Shown: one piece after another, positions 1,625-10,843 of the stretch
How positions within the stretch are numbered: the stretch's first letter is position 1
How the letters are laid out: every line of letters begins with the position of its first letter
Assembly (NCBI GenBank): GCA_950072105.1
Contig: CATMOE010000089.1
Span: 1-11,090, forward strand
Direction: 5' to 3'
Source: an uncultured Dehalococcoidia bacterium
GTDB taxonomy: Bacteria > Chloroflexota > Dehalococcoidia > Lucifugimonadales > UBA3495
DNA length: 11,090 nt
Notes under the pieces: model-generated
Databases searched by the model: none
Told to the model about the DNA's origin: nothing
The model's input: only the letters and a program-made list of their open reading frames with translations
Made by a program: the position numbers and the translations under genes

Positions 1625-1676
1625 GAGCGCCGGCATGGGTTGAAAATAGACGTTGCTGGAAGATGAGGAGACAGGC

Positions 1677-2570
1677 ATGCTTATCGAGCAGGTTTCGGGA
1701 GCGTTGGAACGCATCGTATCGTCTGATCAAGAAGTTGAGTGGTTGGGCAACGGTTACGGTGGTGGATCGGTGGCCGAAGGACCTCTTTGGTGGAAGGAAG
1801 GCGGATACCTCCTGTTCAGCGACATCGGCAACAATCAAAGGTTGAAGTGGGCGCCGGGGGAAGGTGCGACCGTCTTCCATGAGCCTACAAACAACGCCAA
1901 TGGGCTCACCCGCGACGTCCACGGGCGGCTGATTGCCTGCGAGCATGGCACGCGCCGGGTTACCCGCACGGAGCCCGACGGAAGCATCACTGTGGTGGCA
2001 AGCAACTATCAAGGCCGGCGGCTGAACCGGCCCAACGACGTGGTGGTAAAGTCAGATGGCAGCATCTATTTCACCGACCCTGGCGCTCCCGAACCGAACT
2101 TAGACCTTGATTATGCCGGGGTTTACCGGGTGTCCCCGGACCTGGGCGACCTGACCTTGCTGGTCAAGGACTTCGTCACCCCCAACGGCTTAGCCTTCTC
2201 GCCGGACGAAAACATCCTTTACATAAACGATTCGCGCCGGGGGCACATCCGTGCGTTCGACATGCAGCCCAACGGAACTCTGGCCATCGCTAGTGACCGG
2301 GTATTCGCCGATCTGAGAGGAGAACGGTCCGGTGTGCCCGATGGCATGAAAGTGGATGTGGAAGGAAACGTATACTGCGGAGGCTCCGGCGGTATCTGGA
2401 TCTTCGATTCCGCAGGCAATCACTTGGGAATCATCGCCCATGGGGAGCCGGCCACGACCAATATCGCCTGGGGCGATGACGATTGGAAGACCCTGTACAT
2501 CACTACTCGTGACAGCTTGGGTAGAATACCGCTGAAGATAGCCGGTATCCCGGTGCCATCGGGAAAATAA
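1677..2570 (+). CDS. SMP-30/gluconolactonase/LRE family protein (six-bladed beta-propeller lactonase)
   Basis: Motifs AEGPLW, LLFSDI, NGLTRD..GRLIACEH, LNRPNDVVVKSDGSIYFTDP, PNGLAFSPDE and PDGMKVDVEGNVY. Start moved from TTG 1653 to ATG 1677, which follows a GAGGAG RBS at 1665-1670. Confidence 0.93.
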   Translation: MLIEQVSGALERIVSSDQEVEWLGNGYGGGSVAEGPLWWKEGGYLLFSDIGNNQRLKWAPGEGATVFHEPTNNANGLTRDVHGRLIACEHGTRRVTRTEPDGSITVVASNYQGRRLNRPNDVVVKSDGSIYFTDPGAPEPNLDLDYAGVYRVSPDLGDLTLLVKDFVTPNGLAFSPDENILYINDSRRGHIRAFDMQPNGTLAIASDRVFADLRGERSGVPDGMKVDVEGNVYCGGSGGIWIFDSAGNHLGIIAHGEPATTNIAWGDDDWKTLYITTRDSLGRIPLKIAGIPVPSGK

Positions 2571-2592: not shown

Positions 2593-3885
2593 ATGCGAAT
2601 CTTGCTGATCGCCACAAACCGGCACCAGAGATTGATGAGCCGCATGAATGCCTATCCGGCGCCCATCGGGCTGGCTTACATCGCCGGATATCTGGACCCG
2701 GACCGGCACGACGTTAAGATACTGGACCTGATGTTTTCCGAGGACTATCTCGAGGAAACCGGGAGAACGGTTCGGGAGTTCCAACCCGATCTTATCGGCA
2801 TCTCTCTGCGGAACCTGGACAACGTCAGCTACATGGACCCTCAGTGGGCGCTGCCGGGCACGAAAGAAGTTATCGATAAGATTCGCTCAATCACCGAAGC
2901 TCCCATCGTGTGTGGTGGTCCGGGTTTCAGCCTGCTTCCAGAGGCATGTTTCGATTATCTGGGACTTGACTTGGGAGTGGCTGGTGACGGGGGTGAGAGC
3001 TTTGCCCAACTGGCCGACGCCATGGAAAGCGGTGAGACCTATCACAACATGCCCGGGCTGGTTTACCGGGATGATACCGGCTCCATCGTGCGGAAAGGAT
3101 TGGCTTACTCTGAGTTCTCCAAACCACCGCTGTTGGACCAACTTGATATGGCCCGGTACGAGAAGGCGGGATTCGGCATCGGCGTGGTGACCAAGCTGGG
3201 CAACTCCTTCTCCAACTCGATAATCGCCGAGAACGATACGGCCGCCTGGCGGGTGCTGCGTCCAATCGAAGAGGTTATCGATGATGTTCGGGACTTGCAA
3301 GACCGCTTCGGACTGCGCAAGATATTTTTCATCGATTCGGGATTCAACGTCCCTCTGCCTTACGCCAAAGCATTGTGCCGTTCCATCATAGATGCCGACC
3401 TAAAAGTCCACTGGAACAGCTACCTGGCTCCGGTGCCCGAATCCTGCGACGACGAGGTGTTGGAGCTGATGCGAGAAGCCGGTTCCGGCCTGGTGATTGT
3501 GACCAACAAAGCCAGAGAAGACACCGAGCGGGTGAGTCTGGAAAGCCGCTTGGCTCCCCTCCGGGAGGTGTGCCAGCGCTGCGACAAAGTCGGGATAAAC
3601 TACACCGTTTCCCAAACATTCGGCGAGCCAGGAGAGACGCGGGAGACGGTGGATGCGAAACTCAACTTCCTGAGTGAGATCGAGCCGGCCCTGGCCAATC
3701 TACGGGTGGGGGTTAGGATCAGGCCTGACACTCCGACGGCGGATGCCGCCATCAAAGAAGGCATCATCAGCAGCGAGAACGATCTGATTCGTCCCTCTTT
3801 CTACATAGCGGAACCGGTCAGAGACTGGATAGTCGATCGGCTCAAGGCTGAGGCCGAGGCTAATCCCCGCTGGAATGTGGTATAG
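2593..3885 (+). CDS. Cobalamin (B12)-binding domain plus radical-SAM-like barrel protein lacking the CxxxCxxC motif
   Basis: 430 aa. N-terminal B12-binding pattern (PIGLAYIAGYL, VKILDLMF, PDLIGISLRNLDN, IVCGGPGFS, GVAGDGGE). Barrel motifs RPIEEVIDDV, IFFIDSGFN and FGEPGETRETV. The expected TKRGCxxxCxYC reads TKLGNSFSNSII. Confidence 0.85.
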   Translation: MRILLIATNRHQRLMSRMNAYPAPIGLAYIAGYLDPDRHDVKILDLMFSEDYLEETGRTVREFQPDLIGISLRNLDNVSYMDPQWALPGTKEVIDKIRSITEAPIVCGGPGFSLLPEACFDYLGLDLGVAGDGGESFAQLADAMESGETYHNMPGLVYRDDTGSIVRKGLAYSEFSKPPLLDQLDMARYEKAGFGIGVVTKLGNSFSNSIIAENDTAAWRVLRPIEEVIDDVRDLQDRFGLRKIFFIDSGFNVPLPYAKALCRSIIDADLKVHWNSYLAPVPESCDDEVLELMREAGSGLVIVTNKAREDTERVSLESRLAPLREVCQRCDKVGINYTVSQTFGEPGETRETVDAKLNFLSEIEPALANLRVGVRIRPDTPTADAAIKEGIISSENDLIRPSFYIAEPVRDWIVDRLKAEAEANPRWNVV

Positions 3886-3933
3886 GGATAGGTAGGCGGC
3901 CAGAGATTATTTTGACAAAAGATGGAGAGTGTT

Positions 3934-4491
3934 ATGGCTCGAGTACCGAACGTGACCAGAGAGAGCATTCCGGAAAACCAGAGGGCCAGCTTTGACGAGA
4001 TTGTACAAGAGCGGGGCGAGATACCAACGGGCGGCCCCGGCTCCGTCATGTTGAACGCGCCGGAGGTGGCCAAACGGGCATTGGGTCTGGCATTGTTCCT
4101 GCGCACCGAGACATCGTTGGAGCCTCGAATCCGGGAACTGGGCATGCTGGTAGCGGCAAGGGAGAACGACTGCCAGTTCATCTGGAATGCCCACGCCCCT
4201 TCTGCTCGCCGGGCCGGTCTGCGGGACGACATCATCGACGCCTTGCGCGACAAGAAAGCGCTTCCCAACTTGGCGGCAGACGAATCCGCCGTGGTGGAGT
4301 ACGGAAGGGAGTTCTTCCGCACCCGCCGTGTCAGCCAGGCTAACTTCGATGCCGCTTTGGCCCAATTCGGGGTCCTGGGACTGACCGAACTTACCAACCT
4401 CTTGGGCTGCTACGCCATGCTGGCCTTCAACGTCAACGCCTTTGGGGTTGAGCTGCCGGCGGAGCGCACTGAGGACGCTCTGCCTATCTAG
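3934..4491 (+). CDS. Carboxymuconolactone decarboxylase / AhpD-like family protein
   Basis: Motifs GPGSVMLNAPE, SLEPRIRELGMLVAARENDCQFIWNAH..ARRAGL and ELTNLLGCYAMLA. ATG 3934 is preferred over 3922 because GGAG at 3924-3927 is correctly spaced for it. Confidence 0.85.
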   Translation: MARVPNVTRESIPENQRASFDEIVQERGEIPTGGPGSVMLNAPEVAKRALGLALFLRTETSLEPRIRELGMLVAARENDCQFIWNAHAPSARRAGLRDDIIDALRDKKALPNLAADESAVVEYGREFFRTRRVSQANFDAALAQFGVLGLTELTNLLGCYAMLAFNVNAFGVELPAERTEDALPI

Positions 4492-4541: not shown

Positions 4542-4616
4542 TAGCCCGTTCAAGGCTTGGGCACATTGCCAAACTTTCTCAAGAGACACGAAAATCCACG
4601 ACGGAGGCCAAAGAGT

Positions 4617-5498
4617 ATGACGACCGTAGGCACGGGAAAATTCACCTACACATTGATTCAAGACTGGGGCAAACTGCCCGCGGGACAGTCCTTCGGCACC
4701 GTCAGCGCCATCGCCACCGACTCCCAGGACCGGGTTTACGCCTTCCAACGGGCCGAGCCGCCGGTGCTGGTTTTTGACCGGGACGGCAACTATCTAAGCT
4801 CTTGGGGCAATGGGAATTTCGTGAATCCTCACGGTCTGTTCATCAAAGACGACATCGTGTACGTCACCGACCGGGAAGGCTCCACGGCGATGAAATACAC
4901 CCTGGATGGCAAGCCCCTGCAGGTGATCGGGAAGCACGGGGTGGTTTCCGACACGGGCTGCGAGGTTTCAGGAGAGGTTGTTCCCCGGTCCGCCGGCCCG
5001 TTCAACTTCATAACGGAGATGGTCCCCCACCCTTCCGGAGACCTCTACATCTCCGACGGGTACCGCAACGCCAGGGTCCATAGATTTACCGCTGACGGCA
5101 AACTGGTTTCGTCCTGGGGTGAACCGGGTAAGGGCGGGGCCAATCAGTTCCACCTGCCCCACAGCCTGGTAGTTGGGCAGGACGGCCGGATCTACCTGTG
5201 CGACCGGGAGAACAGCCGGATCCAGGTGTTCTCGGCCGAGGGTGAATACATCACTATGTGGACCGACATGAACCGCCCCTTGGACATTTCCCAGGATAGC
5301 GAGGGCAACTTTGTCATCAGCGAGCGGCCGGAGGGAGACAAGCCTCCCCAGATCAGCGTTTTGGATGGGGAAGGCAAAGTGCTGGCCCGCTGGCCGTCCC
5401 GCTCCGCCCACGGATCTTGGGTCGACGCCCACGGTGACATCTATTTGGCCCTGACCTCGGAGAAAAGCATCGACAAATACGTTCGCCAGGGGAATTGA
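4617..5498 (+). CDS. Peptidyl-alpha-hydroxyglycine alpha-amidating lyase (PAL)-like NHL-repeat protein
   Basis: 293 aa from ATG 4617 (GGAGG RBS at 4603-4607). NHL/PAL motifs DSQDRVYAFQR, PVLVFDRDGNYLSSWG, PHGL, LYISDGYRNARVHRF, QFHLPHSL, DRENSRIQVF and AHGSWVDAHGDIY. No signal peptide evident. Confidence 0.88.
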   Translation: MTTVGTGKFTYTLIQDWGKLPAGQSFGTVSAIATDSQDRVYAFQRAEPPVLVFDRDGNYLSSWGNGNFVNPHGLFIKDDIVYVTDREGSTAMKYTLDGKPLQVIGKHGVVSDTGCEVSGEVVPRSAGPFNFITEMVPHPSGDLYISDGYRNARVHRFTADGKLVSSWGEPGKGGANQFHLPHSLVVGQDGRIYLCDRENSRIQVFSAEGEYITMWTDMNRPLDISQDSEGNFVISERPEGDKPPQISVLDGEGKVLARWPSRSAHGSWVDAHGDIYLALTSEKSIDKYVRQGN

Positions 5499-5583
5499 TC
5501 AACATACTAAAACTCAGCCCGTTTCTCTTTGGGCCAATGTTATTCCTCCGAAAATAGAGTTGCCAACCTTCGGCCGCACACTT

Positions 5584-5726
5584 TGTCATTCCGACACCAG
5601 CCCTTCGGCGGAAGGGCGGCGAGGCTCCGACTTCGTCGCGAGTCCCCGGCGGAGTCGGGAAATCTCAGGTGATAGCTACAACCAGGCATGGGATTCCTCT
5701 CCTTCCGCCGAAGGATCGGAATGTCA
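5584..5726. repeat. Nested palindromic REP/MITE-like element (TGTCATTCCGA...TCGGAATGTCA)
   Basis: Terminal inverted repeat at 5584-5594 / 5716-5726 (10 of 11 match). Perfect internal 14-bp inverted repeat CCTTCGGCGGAAGG at 5602-5615 / 5701-5714, each copy itself a hairpin. Further stems at 5627-5635 / 5650-5658 and AATCTCA / TGGGATT at 5661-5667 / 5689-5695. Confidence 0.75.
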
Positions 5727-5766
5727 TTTTCAATTTAGAGTTGACTTGGTACAGGGAGGCACGACC

Positions 5767-6783
5767 ATGCCGTTTGGGGATAATGATTGGCTCGCTTTAA
5801 CCCAAGAACACACCTTGGGGCCGGAACTCCCTATCTGCGACCCCCATCATCACTTCTGGGACCTCCGGCCACAAAGCATTCCCTACCAACGGTACCTTCT
5901 CCATGAACTGAATGCCGATATCTACAGCGGACATAATGTACGGTCCACCGCGTTCGTCGAGGCTAGGTCCATGTACCGTTCCGGCGGCCCGGAGGAGTTG
6001 CGTCCGGTCGGCGAAGTAGAATTCGTCCAGGGTCTGGCCGCTGCCAGTAACAGTGGGGTTTACGGACCCAGCAGGGCCGCGGCGGCCATCGTCGGTCACG
6101 CCGACCTTAAGTTGGGCGCCAAAGTGGAAGCTGTTCTAGAAGCGTTACAAGCGGCCAGCCCCAATCGCTTTAAGGGCATACGGCACAACGTGACCTGGAA
6201 CACCGACCCCTCTTGGGACAACCGGGAAACCGAGGGCATCCTGGCCAATATCACGTTTCGGGAGGGGGCAAAGGTGTTGGCGGATAGGGGATTGTCTTTA
6301 GACATGATGCAGGCGTTCCCTCAAATGCCGGAGATAGCGGATTTTGCCAAAGCCGTGCCCGAACTGACGATCATACTTAACCACATCGGCGGTCTCAGCC
6401 GGTCGGGCATCTATGCCAATAAGGACGACGAGGTGATACCCGTCTGGCGGGAGGGCATCGCCGCAGTGGCGGCCTGTCCGAATGTCGTGGTCAAGCTGGG
6501 CGGCCTGGGTATGCCCCGAATCGGCTTCGGCTGGCACGCGCGGGAAGTCCCCATCGGCTCGCAAGAGTTGGCTGAGGCCATGTCCCCTTGGCTGACCTAC
6601 TGCATCGAACAATTTGGGCCGGACCGGTGCATGTTCGAGAGCAACTTCCCGCCCGATAAGGTGTCCTTCTCTTACAACGTGATGTACAACGCCTTCAAGA
6701 TAATGTCTGGCAGCTACTCGTCGACGGAGCGAGCCGCCATGCTTCACGACACCGCCGTCCGCGTATACCGGATAGACGTATAA
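5767..6783 (+). CDS. Amidohydrolase_2 family metal-dependent hydrolase (COG3618-like, lactonase-type)
   Basis: 338 aa from ATG 5767 (GGGAGG RBS at 5754-5759). Motifs PICDPHHHFW, FKGIRH, IILNHIGG, PNVVVKLGG and FGPDRCMFESNFP. The ORF-track extension to 5560 merely reads through the palindromic repeat. Confidence 0.9.
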   Translation: MPFGDNDWLALTQEHTLGPELPICDPHHHFWDLRPQSIPYQRYLLHELNADIYSGHNVRSTAFVEARSMYRSGGPEELRPVGEVEFVQGLAAASNSGVYGPSRAAAAIVGHADLKLGAKVEAVLEALQAASPNRFKGIRHNVTWNTDPSWDNRETEGILANITFREGAKVLADRGLSLDMMQAFPQMPEIADFAKAVPELTIILNHIGGLSRSGIYANKDDEVIPVWREGIAAVAACPNVVVKLGGLGMPRIGFGWHAREVPIGSQELAEAMSPWLTYCIEQFGPDRCMFESNFPPDKVSFSYNVMYNAFKIMSGSYSSTERAAMLHDTAVRVYRIDV

Positions 6784-6883
6784 TACGAGACGCTGGCCCC
6801 AGGCTTGTTCTTACTAACCGCGTTAGCTGTTGTGATGGAACCTGGGCAGGTATTCTGTTAAATATTCAGGAGGATTTATTCCA

Positions 6884-8554
6884 ATGCCCCAAACAATGAC
6901 CGGAAAACAAGCTCTGCTGGAAATGCTGAAAGCAGAAGGCGTGGAATACATCTTTGGCAATCCAGGGACGAGCGAAGGTCCGATCATAGATATGCTGGGA
7001 GATTATCCGGAGTTTAAATACATCCTCGCCTTGCAGGAGAGCGTCGCCGTCGGCATGGGAGAGTCCTATGCCAGGGCCACGGGAACCGCGTCCTTCGTCA
7101 GTCTTCACGTGGATAGCGGGCTGGCCAACGGAATCTGCCTCATGTTGGACGCCTTGAATACCGGAACTCCAATGGTTATAACGTCGGCCAATTACGACGC
7201 CCGCAAGATCAATGAAACGAAGACGGATCTAGCCGAACTCGTGCGGCCGGTTACCAAGTGGGCGGTGGAACTGACCCTTCCCGACCAGATTCCCAGCGCC
7301 ATTAGACGGGCGTTTAACGAAGCCAATAGTCATCCCAAGGGACCGGTTTACGTTGGTTTCACCTCCAACGCCCTTGAGGCCTCCGCGGAAATGAATATCG
7401 TACCCTCAAGCAAGATAGACGACGCAGTACGGCCAAGTTTGAAGGGGATCCATACAGCGGCGTCGCTGTTAGCCGCTTCTAAGAAACCCATGATGATCGT
7501 GGGAGACCGGGTTTCCGACGACGGCGCGGTGGACCAAGCCGTGGAGTTGGCCGAACTGCTTGGCCTCCCGGTATACCAGTCCCGGGGCGCCGAAGTCGCG
7601 TTTCCCACAACCCATCCTCAATTCATGGGAAACCATTCTTTAAGAGTTCCCGCGGATAGAGAAACTTTGCAACAAGCGGACGTGGTTCTGGCCATCGGGA
7701 TGGATACCTTCGACGAATTATTTTACTGGGGAGACGTGATACTTGGTTCGGCCGCAAAGTTGATCCACATCGACCCGGTCCACGGGCGGGTGGGTAGGTC
7801 GGAGCCCACCGATGTGGGCATCATTTCCCATTGTGGATTGGCTATCGAGGAACTGATCGGTTCGTTGAAGACTCGGCTTACGCCGGCCAACGAGGATGAG
7901 ATTAAGACTCGCGCTCAAACAGTTGTCAGCGAAGCCGTAGCGAAGAGGAGAGCCTTCGACGCGTCGGTGTCGGGGAAGTGGGACAGCCGTCCCATGACCC
8001 CAGCTAGGATGATGGATGAATTAGCCAAGGCGATACCTTCGAACGCCATAGTGGTGGATGACGCGATCAGCAACAGGGCTGCGTTGCGTCATTATTTCCA
8101 AGCGGCCAAGCGGGGCGATCTTGTAGGAGTGAGAGGACAGGCCATAGGCGGCGGGATCGGCGCTACCATGGGCACGCAATGCGCCTACCCCGACAGGCCG
8201 GTCTTTGGGATCATCGGCGACGGCAGCGCCATGATGACTATACAAGGCCTGTGGACGGCGGCGAACGACAACATCCCCTGCATCTTCGTGATCTGCAACA
8301 ACGGAATGTACCGGGTGTTGAAGGTCAACTTTAATGTCTATCAACGGGACATTCTCCAACTGTCCGAACCGGCCGGCAGCCAACTTTTGTATTCGGATTT
8401 CCCGACTCCCTTCGACATAGCGGCGATAGGCCGGAGCATGGGGGTCCACGGCGAGAGAATAGTGGAGCCGGAAGAGATCGCGCCAGCCGTCGCCAGGGCG
8501 GTTGCCTCGGGCAAACCAGCCGTGCTGGACATCGTCATCGATGGGTCTCTTTAA
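6884..8554 (+). CDS. Thiamine-diphosphate-dependent enzyme, benzoylformate decarboxylase (MdlC)-like subfamily; substrate unknown
   Basis: 556 aa. GVEYIFGNPGTSE, the cofactor-activating Glu in ALQESVAVGM, SLHVDSGLAN, PKGPVYV and the ThDP motif GDGSAMM...ICNNGMY. AGGAGG RBS at 6868-6873. Confidence 0.9.
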   Translation: MPQTMTGKQALLEMLKAEGVEYIFGNPGTSEGPIIDMLGDYPEFKYILALQESVAVGMGESYARATGTASFVSLHVDSGLANGICLMLDALNTGTPMVITSANYDARKINETKTDLAELVRPVTKWAVELTLPDQIPSAIRRAFNEANSHPKGPVYVGFTSNALEASAEMNIVPSSKIDDAVRPSLKGIHTAASLLAASKKPMMIVGDRVSDDGAVDQAVELAELLGLPVYQSRGAEVAFPTTHPQFMGNHSLRVPADRETLQQADVVLAIGMDTFDELFYWGDVILGSAAKLIHIDPVHGRVGRSEPTDVGIISHCGLAIEELIGSLKTRLTPANEDEIKTRAQTVVSEAVAKRRAFDASVSGKWDSRPMTPARMMDELAKAIPSNAIVVDDAISNRAALRHYFQAAKRGDLVGVRGQAIGGGIGATMGTQCAYPDRPVFGIIGDGSAMMTIQGLWTAANDNIPCIFVICNNGMYRVLKVNFNVYQRDILQLSEPAGSQLLYSDFPTPFDIAAIGRSMGVHGERIVEPEEIAPAVARAVASGKPAVLDIVIDGSL

Positions 8555-8575
8555 GTCGAAAACGGAGCGATGCTC

Positions 8576-10843
8576 ATGGCGACGATAACACTGGCATACG
8601 GGGCCAGGTTGGAGATCGCGGATGTGCTGTACGAGTTCGTCCGGGATGAGGCCGTCAACGGCACGGCTTGGACGGCGGACCAGTTGTTCGAAGTCCTGGG
8701 TGAGTTGGTCCAGGAATTCGGCCCCAGAAACCAGGAATTGTTGGCCAAGCGGATAAGCCGCCAGGAACAGATCGACCACTACTACATATCCAAGAGGAAC
8801 GGCGGTTGGGAGCCTACTCAAGCATCCGCCGGCCAGGACGCCGCGGACTTTGAGCAGTTCCTGGTGGACATCGGATATCTGGAGCCGGAAAGTTCCACCG
8901 AATTCAGCATGACGACCCCCCAGCTTGACGCCGATATGGATCAGAACGGCCCCGAGTTGGTCACACCCGTGAACAACGCTAGTATGGCGGTGGGGGGCGC
9001 AAACGCCCGGTGGGGCAGCCTCTACGACGCCTACTTCCTCAGTGATATCCATCCGGAGGTCGGCCGGGAGGAAAGCCGGACGGCGCGTCTGCGCATGGTA
9101 GTGGAGGAAACGACTGAGTTTCTGGACGCTCACGTTGCGCAATGGACGAACGGCGTGGGCTTCAAGGATATCGTTTCCTACTCGGTACACCTTAACCCCC
9201 AAGGGACTTACGAGGTTATTGGTCATACCGGCGAGGGAGCCGAGGTTGGGTTAGACAACACCGCCGTCTTCGTTGGATTCAACAAAGACGGCGAGAATCT
9301 GACGGACTTCTTTCTGGAAGACAACGGATTGAAGTTGCAATTTCAGCTTTATGGCGGCGGGCGGGTTAACGAAGAGAACGGCCAGTTCAGAGACCTCTTT
9401 GTCGAATCGGCCATCACCAACATCGTCGACTTTGAGGACGCCGTCGCCATCGTCGACGCGGACGACACGGTATCCGCTCTGAGAAACTACCTGGGCCTGA
9501 TCAAAGGCGACCTTCGCGCCTACGGTTCCAGGGGCAACTTGAAGACCATGAACTCGGATATCACCTCCTTGGATGTGAACGGCTCCAGCCAGGCATTCAA
9601 GGGAACGAGCTTGATGTCCGTGCGCAACGTGTCGCTGCACATGTATACGCCCATGGTAACCGTCGACGGCCAGCAGATACCCGAAAGGATCCTTGGAGTT
9701 TTGTTGACCACATTCATCGCCGCTTCCCACGATAAAGGCTCCAGCGGGGAAGTCGCCGAGGCGGACGGTGGACCGATCCCCATCCGAGGCCCCAACAGTA
9801 AAAAGGGCTACATCTACCAGGTGACCCCCAAGCTACAATCGTCGGAGGAAGTGGCCGAGCAGGTAAGGTTCTTTGAAGCCATCGAGAACAAGCTGGGTCT
9901 GGCGAATAACTCCATCCTCATCGGCATCATGAATGAAGAGCTGGGGATGACTCTCCAACTGGCCCAAGCCCTAAGGGCCGCCCAAAGCAGGACCTTCTTC
10001 ACCAATACCGGTTTCCTGGACCGGACTGGTTCCCAGATACGGACCCAGACGCAGGCGGGGCCGGTTGATCTTAGGGACGACCTCACACAAGAATTGTTTA
10101 ACACCAGCTATGAGCTTCATAACGTGGATGTAAGCATCCATGCCGGAGTCCATAGGCACGGGAAGATCGGCAAGGGGATGCAGGTCAGGAACCGGGCCAT
10201 GGCGGAAATGATGGAGAGGAAGATAGCCCATCCCAGGACCGGCGGTAATACGGCCTGGGTCCCCGCGCCCTACCCCAGCGACCTCCATTCCATGCATTAC
10301 CACATGGTCGATGTGGACCAAGTCCAAAGGGTCATGGAAGATTCACCTTCGCCGGGCATCATGCGTAGGGAACTATTGACCTTCCCTGTCTTGGATAGCG
10401 GCAAACTGGCCGAGCCTGGGGTAAAACAGTCTCTTTTACTAGGTTATACCCATAGCATGGTCGCCTACGTGGAGCCATGGGTCCATCGGGGCATCGGGTG
10501 CAGCGGTGTGCCCAACTTCGACCAGATCGAGGAGATGAAAGACCGGGCCACCGAGAGGATCGACGGCGCGATAATCGCCAACTGGAAACTGCATGGCGTG
10601 GTAGATCAGCAGGAGATCGAAGATGCGGTGAGAAAGGCGGCGGAAGTCGTGGATCAGCAAAACGCTAAGCAGCCTGGCTACGTCCCGATGACGGACACCC
10701 AGGAAAAACGGGACGCCTTGTTGGAAGAACCGGCCATCGCCGCCGTGTTGCAGATCATCGACGACGCCCTCTCCTCTCCCAGCGCTTACGTAGAACCCGC
10801 GTTGTTTAGGAACCGCATGGCGGTAAAAGGTGGTGGGGGATAG
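8576..10843 (+). CDS. glcB: Malate synthase G-like protein (divergent)
   Basis: ~755 aa. MSG motifs ANARWGSLYDA, ESAITNIVDFEDAVA, VRNV, NTGFLDRTG, IGKGM, NTAWVP...LHSMHYH, WVHRGIGCSGVP and DRATERI. ATG 8576 is preferred over 8570 for spacing from GGAG at 8564-8567. Confidence 0.85.
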   Translation: MATITLAYGARLEIADVLYEFVRDEAVNGTAWTADQLFEVLGELVQEFGPRNQELLAKRISRQEQIDHYYISKRNGGWEPTQASAGQDAADFEQFLVDIGYLEPESSTEFSMTTPQLDADMDQNGPELVTPVNNASMAVGGANARWGSLYDAYFLSDIHPEVGREESRTARLRMVVEETTEFLDAHVAQWTNGVGFKDIVSYSVHLNPQGTYEVIGHTGEGAEVGLDNTAVFVGFNKDGENLTDFFLEDNGLKLQFQLYGGGRVNEENGQFRDLFVESAITNIVDFEDAVAIVDADDTVSALRNYLGLIKGDLRAYGSRGNLKTMNSDITSLDVNGSSQAFKGTSLMSVRNVSLHMYTPMVTVDGQQIPERILGVLLTTFIAASHDKGSSGEVAEADGGPIPIRGPNSKKGYIYQVTPKLQSSEEVAEQVRFFEAIENKLGLANNSILIGIMNEELGMTLQLAQALRAAQSRTFFTNTGFLDRTGSQIRTQTQAGPVDLRDDLTQELFNTSYELHNVDVSIHAGVHRHGKIGKGMQVRNRAMAEMMERKIAHPRTGGNTAWVPAPYPSDLHSMHYHMVDVDQVQRVMEDSPSPGIMRRELLTFPVLDSGKLAEPGVKQSLLLGYTHSMVAYVEPWVHRGIGCSGVPNFDQIEEMKDRATERIDGAIIANWKLHGVVDQQEIEDAVRKAAEVVDQQNAKQPGYVPMTDTQEKRDALLEEPAIAAVLQIIDDALSSPSAYVEPALFRNRMAVKGGGG

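Follow-up and report, generated by a model that had tools for sequence, protein, structure and literature searches.

The window, that is the whole stretch of 11,090 nucleotides analysed here, carries at 2593..3885 an open reading frame of 430 amino acids, P0001, encoding a cluster-less protein of the B12-binding/radical-SAM fold; as described in the initial annotation, it is full length, with no stop and no frameshift. This and all other window features described below lie on the forward strand. A gene for an SMP-30/gluconolactonase-like beta-propeller (1653..2570) ends 22 bp upstream, a CMD/AhpD-like gene (3922..4491) starts 36 bp downstream, and a gene for an NHL-repeat beta-propeller (4557..5498) follows. 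P0001 aligns over its full length with TsrM-type B12/radical-SAM proteins: the closest PDB sequence found by phmmer is TsrM (6wte, E 1.3e-29), and TsrM is also the first Foldseek match of the AF2 model (pLDDT 92.2), with E 1.8e-28 and TM 0.76-0.80, further matches being AprD4, OxsB, MgmA, CysS, TokK, MiaB and HydE. According to the model and these matches, P0001 has the partial (beta/alpha)6 TIM-barrel fold of the radical SAM superfamily. The profile searches proposed earlier gave a score above the cut-off for PF02310 (aa 23-140, 2659..3012; 66.3 bits, cut-off 32.1), the cobalamin-binding Rossmann domain, whose coordinates were the same in the genome search, and scores below the cut-offs for PF04055 Radical_SAM (22.3 bits, cut-off 29.5; the match begins beyond the former Cys loop, at aa 222) and for TIGR04072, the best NCBIfam match (aa 2-418; 212.7 bits, cut-off 360). 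Neither TIGR04428 (TsrM; 140 bits versus 500, so that the equivalog score is not reached) nor TIGR04385 (BzaD; aa 2-410, 129 bits, cut-off 450) fits better, and among 42 diverse family members PF02310 is matched by all and PF04055 by 25 at E<=0.001. P0001 belongs to a monophyletic branch that arose from the class-B (B12-binding) radical-SAM proteins of the TsrM-like kind, and is itself probably not a radical-SAM enzyme. Current annotations of these proteins are limited to 'B12-binding domain protein', 'radical SAM protein' or 'YgiQ', and their names in the ESM Atlas are generic.

The CX3CX2C motif of the PF04055 superfamily is absent from P0001. In the phmmer alignment TKLGNSFSNSII stands column for column against TsrM TKNGCAYRCSHC, with N204, N208 and I211 at the places of Cys227, Cys231 and Cys234, exactly the three replacements proposed initially, and the Tyr preceding the third of these cysteines has likewise been lost. 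The coordinates 3190-3225 given for this loop are those of a segment starting at T200; with V199 included, the segment V199-TKLGNSFSNSII-211 occupies 3187-3225, and the former Cys loop as a whole aa 199-218 (3187..3246). Among the 120 closest homologues (58-97% identical), no sequence carries a Cys at even one of these positions, while 124/130 full-length representatives of 50%-identity clusters have CX3CX2C at the same place, and therefore the absence of the cysteines goes beyond chance. Within the AF2 model, pLDDT falls below 50 only at residues 208-212 of this loop; the loop retains motifs specific to particular groups of paralogues.

The replacements continue into the SAM site. The ribose segment AGSGLVIVTNKARED (aa 296-310) is degenerate, and in the region of the former ribose motif and alpha4a (aa 299-320, 3487..3552; pLDDT 71-80) both the SAM-contacting acid and the Lys have disappeared: position 306 is Asp or Glu in 118 of the 124 Cys-bearing relatives, Val, Ile, Ala or Leu in the Cys-less clade and Lys in the window copy, and position 316 in alpha4a is Lys in 111 of these relatives and Leu, Ile, Met or Val in the clade. 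In the altered 'GE' motif G131-D-G-G134-E135 (2983..2997) the relatives' conserved Glu is a Gly (position 134: Glu in 114/124 Cys-bearing relatives, Gly in 38/42 Cys-less sequences). At the 'GGE' motif position, D248-S-G250-F-N252 (3334..3348; residue correspondence counted from the TsrM alignment), G250 takes the place of TsrM Glu273, D248, F251 and N252 being kept in both groups. The strand-5 segment F343-G-E-P-G-E-T349 (3619..3639) has G344, P346, G347 and E348 in common with the Cys-bearing proteins and differs at position 345 (Glu in 37/42 Cys-less sequences, Gly in 99/124 relatives), and in the beta6 motif G373-V-R375-I-R-P378 (3709..3726) R375, the equivalent of TsrM Arg412, is Arg in 39/42 and 122/124 sequences, respectively. 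Positions Y210, the aromatic residue of the Cys loop, and L342, the aliphatic residue of strand 5, are altered in the Cys-less clade too. As a set, the ribose acid, the alpha4a Lys, the strand-5 aliphatic and the Cys-loop aromatic residues are replaced, whereas D248/F251/N252 and R375 are retained, and the remodelled half-barrel has clade-specific residues of its own (Asp/Asn204, Trp219, Lys243, Gln341, Glu345, Lys356, Arg371). The initial annotation had located the degeneracy in the cysteines and the ribose segment; this holds for both, and the Cys-loop aromatic residue, the alpha4a Lys and the GE Glu have to be added. The B12 domain, FFIDSGFN (aa 245-252), FGEPGET (aa 343-349) and CQRC (aa 327-330) are present just as it described them. 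Judging by the sequences, the clade has discarded the site of the [4Fe-4S] cluster and the greater part of that for SAM, while the cobalamin site has been retained.

The remaining cysteines deserve separate consideration, since the CQRC pair had been proposed as a source of alternative metal ligands. C327-Q-R-C330 (3571..3582) lies in helix 316-333; C327 is found in 82/97 and C330 in 95/97 rows of the alignment, and six to seven Cys positions, C327-x-x-C330 among them, are kept in 75-100% of the Cys-less clade. Such conservation is what might be expected if the protein were a radical-SAM enzyme after all, holding its [4Fe-4S] cluster by C262, C285, C327, C330 or others. Yet C262, C298 and C330 are frequent in Cys-bearing relatives too, C330 aligns with TsrM Cys367, C107, C119 and C285 stand at aliphatic positions of the relatives, and in the AF2 model the conserved cysteines are spread over different helices and strands of the two domains. 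In the accessible parts of PMC8992657 and PMC9204698 only the CX3CX2C cysteines and Glu273 are named as ligands of the TsrM cluster, and Cys367 is not. As the SAM contacts are lost as well, we consider cluster binding by these cysteines hardly conceivable; there is no sign of a cluster site at CQRC, which, with C330 at the TsrM Cys367 position and most of the other conserved cysteines replacing aliphatic residues of the relatives, is unlikely to supply metal ligands.

The cobalamin half is in a quite different state. The downstream cobalamin motif G69-I-S-L-R73-N74-L-D76-N77 (2797..2823), part of PDLIGISLRNLDN at aa 65-77, contains R73, the equivalent of TsrM Arg69, which is invariant in 144/144 sequences, in 97/97 rows of a second alignment and in 124/124 Cys-bearing relatives. 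As stated in the accessible text of PMC8992657, Arg69 of TsrM sits beneath the cobalt and is credited with promoting nucleophilic attack on methylcobalamin. A further motif of base-off cobalamin binding, the 'GG' named in the part of PMC9204698 accessible to us, is represented by Gly108-Gly109 (2914..2919), invariant in 42/42 Cys-less and 124/124 Cys-bearing sequences; G131 is invariant, and N74, D76, S113 and P116 are almost so. P0001 thus possesses what characterizes class B, an N-terminal B12 Rossmann domain with the GG and the downstream Cbl motifs. The D-x-H-x-x-G of MetH-type His-on domains was not found in the P0001 sequence, read directly. After strand 1, where B12 domains have their 'His loop', there is a clade-specific insertion of eight residues, R10-H11-x-R13-L-M-S-R17 (2620..2643), which corresponds to a gap in 113-124 of the 124 Cys-bearing relatives and has H11 in 89/97 Cys-less rows. 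The cobalamin site is probably of the Arg-blocked type (R73), cobalamin binding being predicted from these motifs. With two of the three ligand sites degenerate and the third known from its motifs, P0001 could in principle be a cofactor-less pseudoenzyme, that is a structural or regulatory partner which has kept the fold and binds neither a cluster, nor SAM, nor cobalamin. We regard this as improbable: every named class of cobalamin-binding residues is invariant or almost so despite long divergence, and a pseudoenzyme would leave the link to cobalamin riboswitches and btuFCD, discussed below, without explanation.

The Cys-less proteins form one clade (26 rows, SH-aLRT 99) with the Cys-bearing P0125 as its sister, and the sole other Cys-deficient row is P0136. 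For three unsaturated ortholog pairs dN/dS was 0.108, 0.064 and 0.072, as compared to 0.05-0.18 for five neighbouring genes. That the copy might be a decaying gene, the outcome that would have spoken against the initial annotation, is ruled out, because the loss of the cysteines is fixed across the clade, including all 120 closest homologues, and dN/dS is low (0.06-0.11), as for a gene under purifying selection. The family occurs in 34/35 other genomes of the host family (SAR202-type Dehalococcoidia), most of them having 1-4 paralogues, and was found at E<=1e-40 in none of 24 genomes from other families of the order; a class-wide sample of 200 genomes searched at E<=1e-60 yielded the host genome only, which says little as the sample was drawn evenly. 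Metatranscriptome contigs from four runs cover the gene and the whole window at similar depth, one of them spanning the junction of the SMP-30-like gene and P0001, which indicates presence in RNA libraries only and may be due to DNA carry-over. The host has about 12 ordinary radical-SAM proteins, so that it is the P0001 family in particular which has lost the cluster.

As to the gene neighbourhood, the initial annotation attached weight to a catabolic cluster. A tblastn survey of eight window proteins over 20 loci showed that the window synteny is kept only in two genomes of the same genus (G201 and G202, where the CMD/AhpD-like gene adjoins the P0001 orthologue) and is gone at 82% identity, so that this argument has been dropped. 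Individual neighbours do recur: CMD and NHL genes are found near other paralogues, the window NHL gene is about 31% identical to one downstream of a riboswitch-BluB-like unit (genome G000, contig C76), and the protein cluster of the SMP-30-like gene (c24) is also represented beside the riboswitch- and btu-linked copies. Otherwise the contexts of the paralogues are varied and catabolic-looking, with CoA-transferase/thiolase-like/DUF35 genes, P450s, amidohydrolases and LLM monooxygenases. In 12-13 loci two family-III CoA-transferase genes precede the core paralogue and thiolase-like and DUF35 genes follow it. In one genome (G204) a family member is fused in frame with a thiolase-like gene; this fusion was set aside as support, being a single deletion-fusion in which the last ~50 residues of the family protein are missing. 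No fused or longer homologues were detected at E<=1e-40, in a search that is a weak one.

Such neighbours of the core paralogue, the fusion, the two adenosyltransferases of the host and the family-specific loss of the cluster would be in line with a radical enzyme dependent on AdoCbl, which by itself would stand in for [4Fe-4S] and SAM as the source of the 5'-deoxyadenosyl radical, an oxygen-tolerant catalyst of, for example, carbon-skeleton rearrangement of CoA esters in aerobic SAR202. We find this very doubtful. It is precisely the adenosine-contacting parts (ribose acid, Cys-loop aromatic, strand-5 aliphatic) that are lost; the thiolase neighbourhood is a conserved backbone with variable inserts, and its one fusion is truncated; the failure to find longer homologues, though weak evidence, points the same way, as does the OFF logic of the riboswitches considered below. 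Moreover, known AdoCbl enzymes are His-on or DMB-on and not Arg-blocked.

Another association of the family was found outside the window. Of 76 loci in which the gene was called, six have it in an operon with BtuF-, BtuC- and BtuD-like genes, for which NF007081 (301.6 bits) and NF007082 (259.7 bits) are the best matches, yet below their cut-offs. A cobalamin riboswitch (Rfam RF00174, 73.7-113.5 bits) is present upstream in all six. These loci show two gene orders, some stop and start codons overlap, and four of the six are closely related to each other. At one btu-linked locus, L100, the order is a promoter-like site (11/12), the aptamer, a 10-bp terminator-like hairpin with a T-run, and the ATG. 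The six btu-linked copies are basal branches of a 29-row clade (SH-aLRT 99) that contains the window copy, and in 4/4 such genomes searched the btu-linked copy was the only family member found. In the window itself there is neither an Rfam match nor any btu gene, and P0001 as such does not belong to a recognizable cobalamin regulon; the Rfam scan found no riboswitch at 22 other non-btu loci either, and none was adjacent to a family member in 35 genomes of the family when coordinates were compared by eye across 60 relatives. The host makes use of B12: a MetH-like ORF and adenosyltransferases of the PduO and CobO types are present, and its late cob genes are riboswitch-controlled; CbiJ (PF02571), sought in order to tell B12 producers from salvagers, gave no match in five genomes, the host included.

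We propose, at about an even level of confidence, that P0001 is a corrinoid-binding protein of the cytoplasm which uses neither a cluster nor SAM and serves to handle or process cobalamin. Its Rossmann domain would bind the corrinoid base-off/His-off with Arg73 beneath the cobalt, like in TsrM, and the remodelled half-barrel and the hydrophobic/aromatic former Cys loop would close off the upper side of the corrin, taking the position of the cluster and SAM. The protein may take cobalamin in the cytoplasm, hold it or alter its upper ligand or redox state, and then pass it to an adenosyltransferase, MetH or mutases. This job might be analogous to that of CblC, since lower-ligand-free cobalt favours nucleophilic dealkylation. 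As the operon layout shows, in the sister lineage the gene is co-transcribed with a BtuFCD-type importer behind a cobalamin riboswitch, the window copy being presumably a paralogue that departed from the btu operon and now stands with propeller, AhpD-like and oxidative genes. Among the options listed in the initial annotation, 'B12 carrier or sensor' fits best, because sister copies are located in riboswitch-controlled btuFCD operons. Several observations count against a handling role: the window copy lacks a riboswitch and btu genes, and btu-linked loci, four of them closely related, make up just 6/76; 1-4 paralogues in varied contexts would suit a multi-substrate enzyme better than a single chaperone; and the group-specific motifs of the former Cys loop are such as occur in a specificity loop.

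The main rival is a non-radical cobalamin-dependent methyltransferase or demethylase acting on catabolic substrates by TsrM-like Co(I)/methyl-Co(III) cycling, the paralogues serving different substrates. We rate it as tentative and rather unlikely, though several points speak for it: TsrM is the nearest solved relative and shares the Arg beneath the cobalt, the number of paralogues and their varied catabolic neighbourhoods would be accounted for, and so would the loop motifs and the new conserved polar residues in the barrel. However, the TsrM residues named in the accessible part of PMC9204698 as contacting SAM (Asp335, Lys346, Glu236, Lys240 and Glu273) are all replaced in P0001, which makes SAM an unlikely methyl donor; the SAM-to-cobalamin methyltransferase of the TsrM type suggested initially is thereby weakened, its contacts from the ribose motif (Asp), alpha4a (Lys), the Cys loop (Glu/Lys) and the GE motif (Glu) having been replaced. 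Among ~100 neighbour families scanned there was no pterin- or THF-binding methyltransferase, no corrinoid activase and no second methyltransferase. Besides, a B12 enzyme present as the sole copy behind a riboswitch and terminator together with an importer would be off when its cofactor is abundant, and outside two loops the family varies very little (mean column identity 61% among 42 diverse members). A broader reading, to which we give little credence, is that the family represents a new class of oxygen-tolerant B12-only enzymes with adenosyl- or methyl-cobalamin chemistry that multiplied in aerobic SAR202 against recalcitrant organic matter. Skeleton rearrangement or demethylation of CoA esters, alicyclic or aromatic acids may be mentioned as examples of such chemistry, and on this reading the copies in btu operons would be a matter of cofactor supply and not of function.

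In the accessible text of the open-access papers and preprints searched, including PMC12931638, PMC11214058, PMC8992657, PMC9204698 and PMC9600662, no description of a Cys-less family of the B12/radical-SAM fold was found. What defines class-B radical-SAM enzymes is a pair of cofactors, and TsrM, non-radical as it is, still requires its cluster for a reason not yet understood; a large clade maintained by selection after discarding the cluster is thus an experiment of nature on what the cluster does and shows what the cobalamin half alone can do. If the link to riboswitch-controlled import is functional, the family would perform an undescribed cytoplasmic step of B12 handling in bacteria that rank among the most abundant groups of the dark ocean, which, if true, bears on the marine B12 economy. 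Anyway, Cys-less family members should not be counted as radical-SAM enzymes.

Among the known systems, CblC/MMACHC-type processing proteins and corrinoid escorts resemble P0001 in the proposed job and the genomic tie to B12 import. CblC-type proteins receive imported cobalamin base-off in the cytoplasm and make it ready or pass it on; this likeness is a functional analogy only, as CblC has a flavin-reductase-like fold and no sequence or fold relation to P0001. BzaD (TIGR04385), the radical-SAM methyltransferase of B12 lower-ligand biosynthesis, shares with P0001 full-length similarity and a connection to corrinoid metabolism; it is a canonical cluster-bearing enzyme, and no bza genes were noticed next to any family member. 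The nearest Cys-bearing relatives, P0125, P0129 and P0131, belong to TIGR04072 ('lipid biosynthesis B12-binding/radical SAM protein') and an uncharacterised class-B clade; they are 33-39% identical to P0001, equal in length and share Arg73, but still have the CX3CX2C motif, the Tyr of the Cys loop, the acid of the ribose motif, the Lys of alpha4a and the Glu of the GE motif and are devoid of the His-loop insertion. TsrM (tryptophan 2-C-methyltransferase; PDB 6WTE/6WTF; TIGR04428) consists of the same two domains, the N-terminal cobalamin Rossmann domain and the partial TIM barrel, and of its 575 residues the match to P0001 spans 17-420. Both have the Arg under the cobalt (Arg69/Arg73), GG, D-S-x-F-N, the beta6 Arg and G-x-P-G-E-T. 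The accessible literature describes the [4Fe-4S] cluster of TsrM as functionally critical; Glu273 is named in PMC8992657 and PMC9204698 as its fourth ligand beside the CX3CX2C cysteines. TsrM and, by its sequence, P0001 are both non-radical by design, but TsrM keeps CX3CX2C, [4Fe-4S], Glu273, Asp335, Lys346 and Glu236, whereas in P0001 all of them have been replaced.

The uninterrupted ORF at 2593-3885 (+) encodes a protein of 430 residues, whose B12-binding domain scores 66.3 bits against a Pfam cut-off of 32.1; its Radical_SAM match is below the threshold (22.3 vs. 29.5 bits) and aligns from residue 222 onward only. The NCBIfam models TIGR04072 (212.7 bits, cut-off 360), TsrM (140 bits, cut-off 500) and BzaD (129 bits, cut-off 450) match it end-to-end, all under their cut-offs. 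TsrM is the sole strong sequence match among solved structures (E 1.3e-29), and in this alignment TKNGCAYRCSHC of TsrM pairs without gaps with TKLGNSFSNSII of the gene product, the cluster-cysteine positions being held by N204, N208 and I211. The initial annotation was thus right about the replacement of the cluster cysteines, and the other segments quoted in it were all located where it had placed them. In the AlphaFold2 model (pLDDT 92.2, pTM 0.91) only the former Cys loop has pLDDT <50; TsrM is again the top fold match (E 1.8e-28, TM 0.76-0.80), followed by AprD4, OxsB, MgmA, CysS and TokK.

None of the best 120 homologues (58-97% identity) has Cys at the three cluster positions. CX3CX2C occupies the cluster site in 124 of 130 full-length sequences, each representing a 50%-identity cluster; the six that lack it are the proteins P0122, P0123, P0124, P0127, P0128 and P0136, the last of which retains CxxxC only. 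A 106-row tree places every Cys-less row but P0136 in one clade of 26 (SH-aLRT 99), whose sister is the Cys-bearing P0125, and a second tree of 100 rows agrees. Three ortholog pairs have unsaturated dS, and in these the gene shows dN/dS of 0.108, 0.064 and 0.072 (0.05-0.18 for five neighbouring genes). These low ratios, the Cys-less homologues and the single Cys-less clade contradict the decaying copy considered as an alternative in the initial annotation: the family is a monophyletic branch of TsrM-like class-B radical-SAM proteins that is under selection, has no cluster site and is degenerate in the SAM site. It is present in 34 of the 35 other genomes of the GTDB family of the host, with 1-4 copies per genome (three in the host itself), and in none of 24 genomes from other families of the same order (E<=1e-40). 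The named records come from Dehalococcoidia/SAR202/Chloroflexota MAGs, apart from three that belong to Candidatus Entotheonella. The Entotheonella members (loci L136, L147 and L151; 54-56% identity) are nested in the tree among Dehalococcoidia sequences, beside one uncultured-bacterium MAG, and gene transfer between sponge-associated or marine lineages is possible. A look-alike cluster in the ESM Atlas is most frequent in Candidatus Methylomirabilota. Contigs from four marine metatranscriptome runs cover the gene, which attests to its presence in RNA libraries rather than to its transcription, and one of them spans the junction with the upstream gene without mismatches.

Residues were compared between 42 diverse Cys-less sequences and 124 Cys-bearing relatives, the roles of TsrM residues being taken from passages of PMC9204698, PMC8992657 and PMC12931638. 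In the Cys-less sequences the three cluster cysteines and Gly203 are gone, as are the Tyr preceding the third Cys (present in 108/124 relatives) and the strand-5 aliphatic residue at 342; Arg at position 202 is replaced by Leu, Glu134 of the GE motif (114/124) by Gly, and both the D/E of ribose-motif position 306 (118/124) and Lys316 of alpha4a (111/124) by aliphatic residues. Gly250 is the counterpart of TsrM Glu273. Invariant or nearly so are Arg73, Asn74 and Asp76, Gly108-Gly109, Ser113, Pro116, Gly131, Asp248, Phe251, Asn252, Gly344, Pro346, Gly347, Glu348 and Arg375 (TsrM Arg412). Arg73 corresponds to TsrM Arg69, placed under the cobalt in a passage of PMC8992657, and Gly-Gly is described in part of PMC9204698 as the base-off cobalamin motif. 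Judging by these residues, the cobalamin site of the family is intact; a cofactor-less pseudoenzyme, to which the loss of the cluster and SAM motifs might point, seems improbable. The clade has gained an 8-residue insertion in the 'His loop' (R10-H11-x-R13-LMS-R17, with His11 in 89 of 97 Cys-less rows), a second insertion at residues 167-175, and the specific residues Trp85, Cys119, Asp132, Trp219, Lys243, Gln341, Glu345, Lys356 and Arg371, and motifs specific to paralogue groups persist in the former Cys loop (e.g., G-D-F-Y-Y-P-T or D-D-x-F-S-H-S-M). As for the conserved cysteines C107, C119, C262, C285, C298, C327 and C330, each is found in 75-100% of the clade. Several are common to cluster-bearing relatives or stand for aliphatic residues, and in the model they are spread over different secondary-structure elements; we consider an alternative Fe-S site built from them very unlikely.

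Of the loci in which the family gene was called (76), six have it in an operon with Peripla_BP_2 (BtuF-like), FecCD and ABC ATPase genes. The best NCBIfam matches of the latter two, both under the equivalog cut-offs, are BtuC (301.6 bits) and 'corrinoid ABC transporter ATPase' (259.7 bits). In each case Rfam detects a same-strand cobalamin riboswitch upstream; five of these score 111.5-113.5 bits and the remaining one 73.7. The order is either riboswitch-gene-btuF-btuC-btuD or riboswitch-btuF-btuC-gene-btuD, and three loci show an overlap between the stop codon of the family gene and the btuF start. At one of them, L100, a promoter-like site (11/12), the aptamer (6691-6886), a 10-bp hairpin with a T-run (6929-6952) and the ATG at 7001 follow one another, and this leader has the predicted anatomy of a transcriptional OFF switch. 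The six genes are basal branches of a 29-row clade (SH-aLRT 99) holding the window copy, and in four such genomes searched the btu-linked copy is the sole family member found. The sister lineage belongs to a predicted B12-repressed import operon. The btu-linked loci contain in addition an LLM gene and an SGL-propeller gene from the cluster to which the propeller of the window belongs, which suggests that the window locus has descended from this type by rearrangement. Rfam found no riboswitch in the window, nor in the 22 further non-btu loci scanned. Peripla_BP_2 genes of the BtuF/FhuD type with one in-frame TGA each occur in four genomes, at 32262-33035 (contig C3) and 26038-26820 (C29) of the host G000 and in three further genomes (G260:C2:44727-45500, G261:C2:1054044-1054817, G262:C1:1328831-1329604); the TGA could be selenocysteine, other recoding or a conserved split.

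A protein whose production goes with that of the importer under B12 scarcity would more readily have a corrinoid-handling role than be a B12-consuming enzyme. We give about even chances to its acting on or with the corrinoid itself, either as a cytoplasmic acceptor/escort or in upper-ligand/redox processing before adenosylation. The corrinoid would be bound base-off with Arg73 below the cobalt, and the remodelled barrel would close over the upper corrin face. An AdoCbl radical enzyme is quite improbable. The host encodes PduO- and CobO-type adenosyltransferases, a MetH-like ORF, two small B12-domain ORFs and about 12 ordinary radical-SAM genes, so the loss of the cluster does not reflect a general inability to make Fe-S enzymes. 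Its four cobalamin riboswitches precede a BluB-like nitroreductase and two operons, one for a CobN-type chelatase and one comprising CbiA/CobO/CobT/CobS/CbiB; CbiJ was not found in the genome. At 6946-14276 of host contig C76 (L153) the riboswitch (122.7 bits) is followed by the BluB-like nitroreductase, DUF1800, DUF1501, an NHL propeller and a BNR protein. The riboswitch and BluB-like pair recurs in five other genomes, DUF1800/NHL(/CMD) blocks also adjoin some family members, and a link of the propeller and DUF1800/DUF1501 genes with corrinoid metabolism is possible.

In the window array an LLM monooxygenase (-) is followed by (+)-strand genes for an SGL propeller, the family protein, a CMD/AhpD-like protein, an NHL propeller, amidohydrolase_2, a TPP enzyme and malate synthase G; it is common only to two same-genus genomes and absent already at 82% identity. 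The TPP enzyme (within 6884-10843) is benzoylformate-decarboxylase-like (NF005485, 317 bits, under the cut-off), with malate synthase G (NF002999-type, 580.8 bits, above the cut-off) 15 bp 3' of it, which suggests a glyoxylate-ending route. At 5551-5920, the start of the amidohydrolase_2 ORF (5560..6783), contig depth in the four metatranscriptome runs is 4-8 times that of the rest of the window, with many contig joints and loose ends at 5584-5723 and replaced letters at 5624-5692; this short stretch seems to be common to many different contigs, as a repeat or a conserved leader/N-terminal segment. The core paralogue has the conserved backbone HerA, unknown gene, family gene, DUF7124, DUF1385, L21, FakA, DegV, with variable inserts including two family-III CoA-transferases, P450s, and thiolase-like and DUF35 genes. 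In 13 core-type loci, L042 among them, the core paralogue has a thiolase-like gene (Thiolase_C_1) and a DUF35/ChsH2-like OB-fold gene directly 3' of it and two divergent family-III CoA-transferase genes 5' of it, an arrangement that looks like a CoA-ester module. At L176:2001-4400 (G204:C3) one 799-aa frame fuses core-type family residues 1-~380 to a full thiolase-like protein, without the last ~50 residues of the family protein and the spacer; a search for further long forms at E<=1e-40 gave none, and a genuine fusion, a copy in decay and a mistake of assembly are all possible. Other paralogues adjoin GMC oxidoreductase/MOSC, peptidase C1/aminotransferase/SDR, gamma-glutamyltranspeptidase/LLM, aldolase-SDR/amidohydrolases, or LLM/AhpC-like/DUF1800/NHL/CMD genes. 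Multiple paralogues, such varied contexts and group-specific loops would suit the main rival explanation, a methyltransferase or demethylase that uses cobalamin for polar chemistry on catabolic substrates; we hold it possible but rather doubtful, as SAM contacts are lost, the riboswitch logic speaks against it, and the neighbours at the 41 + 81 loci surveyed include neither a corrinoid activase nor a pterin-binding or second methyltransferase.

As to known systems, we found no description of a Cys-less B12/radical-SAM-fold family in the accessible portions of open-access papers and preprints, and in a 2026 review the canonical CXXXCXXC motif is still what defines the group (PMC12931638). The gene product fails the defining radical-SAM features, namely the cluster motif, the SAM motifs and the Pfam threshold, and it falls short of every NCBIfam equivalog cut-off. 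It is best classified as a radical-SAM-fold protein with a B12-binding domain and not as a radical-SAM enzyme. By descent it belongs with the TsrM-like group, to which it is nearest.
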